Origin: Escherichia coli
GTDB lineage: Bacteria; Pseudomonadota; Gammaproteobacteria; Enterobacterales; Enterobacteriaceae
Assembly: GCF_044324785.1 (NCBI RefSeq)
Contig: NZ_CP172127.1
Length of the DNA stretch: 64,000 nt
Reading direction: 5' to 3' (one strand)
The notes beneath the pieces were generated by a model. That model ran no database searches, was not told the DNA's origin, and was given only the letters and a program-made list of their open reading frames with translations. The first letter of the stretch is position 1; each line of letters begins with the position of its first letter. The position numbers and the translations under genes are program-made. This document shows, one piece after another, positions 48,819-48,866 of this stretch.

Positions 48819-48866
48819 TCAGGGGAAGGTAAAAAAGAATGCGAAGAAAAACGGTGTGTGTTTCAT
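48819..48866 (-). CDS. pheL: pheA leader peptide PheL (15 aa, 7 Phe codons)
   Basis: Minus strand ATGAAACACACACCGTTTTTCTTCGCATTCTTTTTTACCTTCCCCTGA = [15 protein letters not shown]. Confidence 0.9.
   Translation of the reverse strand: [15 protein letters not shown]

Follow-up and report, generated by a model that had tools for sequence, protein, structure and literature searches.

The pheL leader of an Escherichia coli pheL-pheA attenuator and its threonine allele at codon 4

The short leader reading frame studied here lies in a stretch of 64,000 nucleotides of E. coli DNA (the window), and the element to which it belongs is very probably an ordinary E. coli pheL-pheA transcription attenuator with a common, ancestral Thr4 allele of the leader peptide. 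The Thr4 peptide is already known (RefSeq WP_001386991.1), and around three quarters of sequenced E. coli, together with sister Escherichia species, have threonine at position 4. K-12, with isoleucine, represents a minority, derived state, which is a useful caution for a textbook leader peptide.

The pheL reading frame and its surroundings

The pheL leader ORF (48819..48866, minus strand) consists of 15 codons followed by TGA. Read from 48866 down to 48819, it opens with ATG AAA CAC ACA CCG, continues through TTT TTC TTC, GCA and TTC TTT TTT, and closes with ACC TTC CCC TGA. Seven of the codons are Phe (positions 6, 7, 8, 10, 11, 12 and 14), giving the arrangement FFF-A-FFF-T-F. The closing codons, UUC_CCC_UGA in the transcript, are the ending by which the CCC_UGA group is recognised (Gurvich et al, 2011; PMC3082878). 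The plus strand of 48819-48866 was considered and rejected, as it translates to nonsense. The original prediction had named a pheL leader with seven Phe codons at exactly these coordinates, and this was borne out: the minus-strand ORF, the Rfam family and the downstream pheA all agree.

The match to Rfam RF01859 (Phe_leader) spans 48742-48867(-), covers the model in full (positions 1-125 of 125) and scores 132.2 bits (E = 2e-24) where the gathering score is 55. A Shine-Dalgarno sequence, AAGGA (48874..48878, minus strand), lies 7 nt 5' of the ATG and is unchanged in a five-strain alignment. The leader-controlled gene is pheA (47559..48719, minus strand), whose ATG follows the pheL ATG by 147 nt on the same strand and which encodes the bifunctional chorismate mutase/prephenate dehydratase. 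It matches the NCBIfam equivalog NF007910 over residues 1-385 with 824.7 bits (cut-off 577), and the RefSeq annotation of matching regions agrees. A Phe-run ORF, pheA directly downstream, an intrinsic terminator and the RF01859 score together identify the leader as pheL. A chance origin of the ORF is ruled out by the Rfam match, the fold z-score, the terminator and the downstream pheA, which lie far beyond chance.

Upstream of pheL is raiA (NCBIfam NF007654, 255.7 bits). The terminator scan placed its intrinsic terminator at 48927..48946 on the minus strand (AACGCGCCTTCGGGCGCGTT followed by a T run), leading into the -35 element of the pheL promoter. From a reading of the sequence, the pheL-pheA promoter is presumed to occupy 48892..48921 (minus strand), with TTGACA at 48921..48916, an 18-nt spacer and TACTGT at 48897..48892; in the alignment, this stretch is identical in K-12, CFT073 and O157:H7. 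A sigma-70 consensus scan of 48600-49000 found no promoter, and the presumed -10 element TACTGT matches at 3/6 positions. Four nucleotides downstream of that element, near the transcription start, the window has G at 48888 (minus strand) where K-12, CFT073 and O157:H7 have A; the 61-nt context of this G was found exactly in 685 of 5,425 genomes (12.6%). There are also two long ORFs on the plus strand, 48604-49392 (262 aa, TTG start) and 48881-49363 (160 aa, GTG start), both antisense to pheL, its promoter and raiA. These are most likely by-products of the raiA coding frame, not genes.

Attenuator structure and predicted mechanism

Minimum-energy folding and Rfam both place a segment 1:2 pause hairpin at 48776..48852 (minus strand), in which the Phe-codon stretch is paired with GUGAAACAGAAUGCGAAGACGAAC. 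The antiterminator (2:3) pairing (48752..48826, minus strand) was obtained in constrained folds at -36.8 kcal/mol, with the terminator hairpin absent. The attenuator terminator (3:4) at 48742..48772 (minus strand), which is AAGGCCTCCCAAATCGGGGGGCCTT and then TTTTTT, was returned by the terminator scan, the folds and Rfam; in the scan its stem has 10 pairs, 7 of them G-C, plus the T run. The minimum-energy fold of the 144-nt leader contains the 1:2 and 3:4 hairpins and has the same dot-bracket structure with ACA or AUA at codon 4, at -51.7 kcal/mol each. The ensemble energies of the two alleles are -53.95 and -54.02, and the z-scores of the leader fold against shuffles are about -5.3 to -5.9.

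The ribosome was simulated by masking a 28-nt footprint and refolding the leader. With the A site on Phe codon 6, 8 or 10, GGGAGGC directly after the stop codon paired with GCCUCCC and the terminator was gone, whether on codon 6, 8 or 10; masking the ribosome at codon 4 or at the stop codon left the terminator in place (in silico). The masked ACA and AUA folds were identical at all positions except with the A site on codon 14, where the terminator was kept in both. The 1:2, 2:3 and 3:4 pairings are therefore mutually exclusive and dependent on ribosome position in silico.

Figure 1 of PMC3082878 presents the pheL 1:2 hairpin and the textbook attenuation mechanism, which the masked folds reproduce, and literature cited there reports for K-12 that pheA transcription goes up when charged tRNA-Phe is limiting. 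In the window, the predicted course of events would be the following. With charged tRNA-Phe plentiful, the ribosome would pass the seven Phe codons and reach UGA, at which point the 1:2 and 3:4 hairpins would form and transcription would stop at the U run before pheA. With Phe-tRNA scarce, it would stall on the Phe codons and leave segment 2 free to pair with segment 3 (GGGAGGC/GCCUCCC); this 2:3 pairing would block the terminator, and pheA would be transcribed. Codon 4 lies 5' of every regulatory segment.

Codon 4 in E. coli and its relatives

Codon 4 of the window pheL is ACA (Thr; 48855..48857, minus strand). The original prediction gave isoleucine (ATA) for K-12 and named a threonine there as the result that would overturn it; the aligned K-12 sequence (NZ_CP064682.1; protein WP_010723158.1) does read ATA. 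The differing base, 48856, is the one T/C difference between the window and K-12 inside the pheL ORF in an alignment with four references, of which the other three (CFT073, O157:H7 EC4115 and 06-00048) all have ACA (Thr; protein WP_001386991.1). 

Of 5,426 complete E. coli genomes, 5,425 contain the 311-nt leader stretch, where pheL, the Phe leader region and pheA are annotated. Alleles were counted across these 5,426 genomes, a collection without Shigella, using 61-nt queries (Shine-Dalgarno plus pheL ORF) and BLAST identity bands; one mismatch in such a query gives 98.4% identity, so the band of at least 99% holds exact matches. The window allele, Thr4 (ACA), was found exactly in 3,563/5,426 genomes (65.7%), the K-12 allele, Ile4 (ATA), in 1,383 (25.5%), and a third allele, Thr4/Ile13 (codon 13 ACC to ATC; WP_001700969.1), in 428 (7.9%), which sum to 5,374 genomes, although the counts may shift by a few genomes via partial alignments (e.g. 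PCN061). Ile4 is found in derivatives of K-12, in UMNK88 and in strains of this kind. Among the genomes with Thr4 are CFT073, one O25b:H4-ST131 strain, O157:H7 and O104:H4 strain HUSEC2011, which we take to belong to phylogroups B2, E and B1. The suggestion that Thr4 is a strain-marking difference did not survive this survey, as Thr4 is the majority allele even before the genomes that also have Ile13 are added to it. It is Ile4 that marks the K-12 lineage, with S. flexneri 2a included according to PMC3082878, and Thr4 does not mark the window strain.

Two further variants were seen in the survey. The Thr4/Ile13 allele, found in E. coli SA53-3 and MEI3A-1023, additionally carries A in place of T within the small hairpin loop directly past the stop codon; through its codon 13 change, U-G replaces a C-G pair in the 1:2 hairpin, with pairing kept (fold -50.6 vs -51.7 kcal/mol). 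In PCN061, AGA stands in place of the pheL stop codon TGA, and the RefSeq annotation is an incomplete pseudogene; either a sequencing error or a genuine readthrough variant could explain this.

For the direction of change, species-representative genomes were searched with a pattern in which only ATGAAA, the two Phe triplets and the final Phe-Pro are fixed; this gave at least 120 Enterobacterales loci, from an outgroup sample without E. fergusonii, E. marmotae and Salmonella. For 119 of the 120 loci listed, tblastn places the start of a pheA homologue 145-156 nt beyond the leader ATG, and the remaining locus has just 99 nt of flank. The leader of E. albertii begins MKHTP, with Thr codon ACT, and those of E. 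whittamii and Escherichia sp. E1V33 begin MKQTP, with Thr codon ACG. As MKQTP is also the start in Enterobacter cloacae, we considered whether E. whittamii and E1V33 are mislabelled Enterobacter; this was rejected on their flanks, which, like those of E. albertii, are 91-92% identical to the window and ~80% identical to Enterobacter. The E. whittamii and E1V33 pheL ORF itself (ATGAAACAAACGCCG...) is nucleotide-identical to Enterobacter cloacae and E. asburiae loci; a small transfer, or convergence at the two free codons, might account for this. Because three non-coli Escherichia species have Thr4, threonine is the ancestral Escherichia state and the K-12 isoleucine a derived C-to-T transition.

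Two other accounts of the allele were weighed against this distribution. The ACA codon might stem from faulty sequencing or assembly, or be a mutation private to the window strain, and its single-base difference from K-12 is the only thing that speaks for this; with the same 61 nt in 3,563 independent complete genomes (CFT073, O157:H7, HUSEC2011 and ST131 among them) and the Thr4 peptide listed in RefSeq as WP_001386991.1, we put its probability at almost nil. Alternatively, Ile4 might be ancestral in E. coli, with Thr4 arising and spreading afterwards. The Rfam consensus does have a lower-case 'aua' at model positions 11-13, reflecting its seed sequences. However, Thr occupies codon 4 in the three non-coli Escherichia species, ATA was found at this codon in none of the 120 Enterobacterales species among the matches listed, and the Thr4 strains span what we take to be phylogroups B1, B2 and E, with Ile4 in K-12-like strains. 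This order of events is exceedingly unlikely, and an ancestral Thr4 remains our preferred reading.

Position 4 varies widely beyond Escherichia. Among the 120 species listed, 12 residues occur there (L 32, V 24, T 22, D 10, F 9, Q 8, I 6 and others), and position 3 is equally varied, with 12 amino acids; Pro stands at residue 5 in 95 species and Thr at residue 13 in 117, and Ala9 is invariant. In agreement with this, PMC3082878 names the AUG, the regulatory Phe codons and UUC_CCC_UGA as the sole invariant parts of enterobacterial pheL. Codon 4 is hypervariable and selectively unconstrained on the sequences compared, and few sites in the peptide are under as little constraint. Three Mangrovibacter leaders differ in length, having no stop after FP and 23 residues where the enterobacterial leader otherwise has 15-16.

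Regulatory weight of the codon 4 difference

That codon 4 lies outside the Phe run was part of the original prediction and stands; it also lies outside every paired segment, as positions 1-15 of the Rfam consensus model are unpaired (codon 4 is 11-13) and the minimum-energy folds agree. Since codon 4 is outside both the Phe run and the paired segments, an effect on attenuation is not expected. Going by folds and sequence, the difference between ACA and ATA most likely has no bearing on regulation, which we infer to be unaffected. Among the Ile codons of the window's long ORFs, 9.8% are ATA, and among their Thr codons 15.2% are ACA; each is the rarest of its family, and any contrast in decoding speed would therefore be modest. 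The window carries a tRNA at 22679-22754 (+) that ARAGORN reports as tRNA-Met (anticodon CAT); the matching E. coli XJ6.1 gene is annotated as tRNA-Ile, and on that annotation it is the minor tRNA-Ile(CAU), the reader of AUA, which is K-12 pheL codon 4.

The polymorphism could instead be functional, in that K-12's rare AUA codon, or the residue at position 4 of the nascent chain, alters the speed at which the first ribosome arrives at the paused polymerase, or the amino acid whose shortage produces an early stall; super-attenuation or the basal expression of pheA would then vary with lineage. ATA is the least-used Ile codon and is read by the minor tRNA-Ile(CAU), which may have a small kinetic effect on ribosome-polymerase coupling. 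A ribosome with codon 4 in its A site keeps the 1:2 hairpin and the terminator in silico, and an early stall would therefore favour termination. The early codons of the trp leader are a precedent, since an early stall there favours termination. The adjacent Pro5 also matters to this reading: according to PMC3082878, +1 frameshifting at CCC_UGA is altered 2-fold by Pro at -10 (codon 5), which argues that the N-terminal nascent peptide is not wholly inert; no such effect is given for codon 4 in the sections consulted. Against it, ACA is itself the rarest Thr codon (15%), leaving a small contrast in speed, 12 residues occupy position 4 across the 120 species listed, and both alleles persist at high frequency. 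We regard a functional polymorphism as very unlikely. Were it to alter ribosome-polymerase coupling, the two alleles would serve as a minor natural experiment in the kinetics of attenuation, but neutrality is what the evidence favours.

A second difference from most E. coli lies between the attenuator and the pheA Shine-Dalgarno, where the window has a run of 6 A (48729..48734, minus strand) and nearly all E. coli have 5 A. The 61-nt context of the 6-A run was exact in 11 of 5,425 genomes (0.2%), including 06-00048, O7:H15 ST70 and 19KM1831. Following CCC_UGA, the +1 frame gives a 34-residue extension in the window, with its TGA overlapping the pheA ATG, versus a 51-residue extension in K-12 that ends inside pheA, 56 nt past the A of the ATG; the extra A thus moves the +1-frame stop onto the pheA ATG. 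PMC3082878 gives such an overlap for Salmonella, and also reports altered frameshifting there without a change of pheA expression. Given that negative result on frameshifting and pheA expression, the extra A is probably inconsequential. A combined scheme would have Thr4/AUA-Ile4 as lineage tuning, with AUA delaying the ribosome or tying super-attenuation to Ile and not Thr, and the extra A allowing re-initiation on pheA by the ~15% of ribosomes that frameshift at CCC_UGA; this, too, has very little probability in our estimation. We retain neutrality of the codon 4 difference as the preferred reading. G48888 and the extra A, unlike Thr4, do narrow down the lineage of the window.

Window context and comparison with known systems

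The window shares synteny with the proVWX-nrdEF-gab-ssrA-recN-ffh-aroF-tyrA-pheA-raiA-clpB-rrn region of E. coli. Against the 5,426 complete E. coli genomes, its 36-60 kb part matches best at 99.3% (strain N3) and next at 98.7%, and its 1-25 kb part matches at ~97-98%; strain 06-00048 nevertheless has a pheL region 100% identical to that of the window over 311 nt. These matches point to a rare or poorly sampled lineage with a mosaic history, possibly Shigella or a divergent E. coli clade. Other RNA features in the window are naRNA4 (232-309, minus strand; Rfam) at its start, the tmRNA ssrA (30620-30982, minus strand; tag ANDENYALAA), the RyfD sRNA (52173-52311, plus strand; Rfam, 125 bits) just upstream of clpB, and StyR-44 (57088-57187, plus strand; Rfam) in the rRNA spacer before the 23S.

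The closest known leader is WP_001386991.1 ('pheA operon leader peptide PheL'), whose peptide and ORF nucleotides are identical to those of the window and which also lies between raiA and pheA. Relative to the leader region of CFT073 and O157:H7, the window adds the G at 48888 and the extra A at 48729-48734, and strain 06-00048 has both. The K-12 leader (WP_010723158.1, 'phe operon leader peptide'), the classic experimental one, shares 14/15 residues with the window, and the two are alike in their seven Phe codons, UUC_CCC_UGA end, Shine-Dalgarno, hairpins and terminator. K-12 differs from the window in having ATA at codon 4, A at the 48888 position, and five (not six) A before the pheA Shine-Dalgarno. 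Early in pheA, at alignment column 274, the window has the codon CGT where K-12, CFT073 and O157:H7 have CGA. A full-text literature search with the K-12 PheL peptide string matched no paper.

Within the CCC_UGA pheL group (Gurvich et al, 2011; PMC3082878), the paper gives UUC_CCC_UGA for all 19 genes, an ending that the window has as well, and identical pheL nucleotides in K-12 and S. flexneri 2a. The Salmonella pheL-pheA has the same overlap of +1-frame stop and pheA ATG as the window, in which it arises from a one-base expansion of the A run; in most E. coli, unlike the window, the +1 frame ends inside pheA. Compared with the RF01859 consensus, the window has the same consensus structure, and its differences fall in the unpaired, weakly conserved 5' part. 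The trpL, hisL, thrL, leuL and ilvL attenuators share with pheL the general design of a short ORF of regulatory codons, 1:2, 2:3 and 3:4 pairings and an intrinsic terminator. They differ from pheL in the amino acid sensed, have unrelated sequences and form separate Rfam families.
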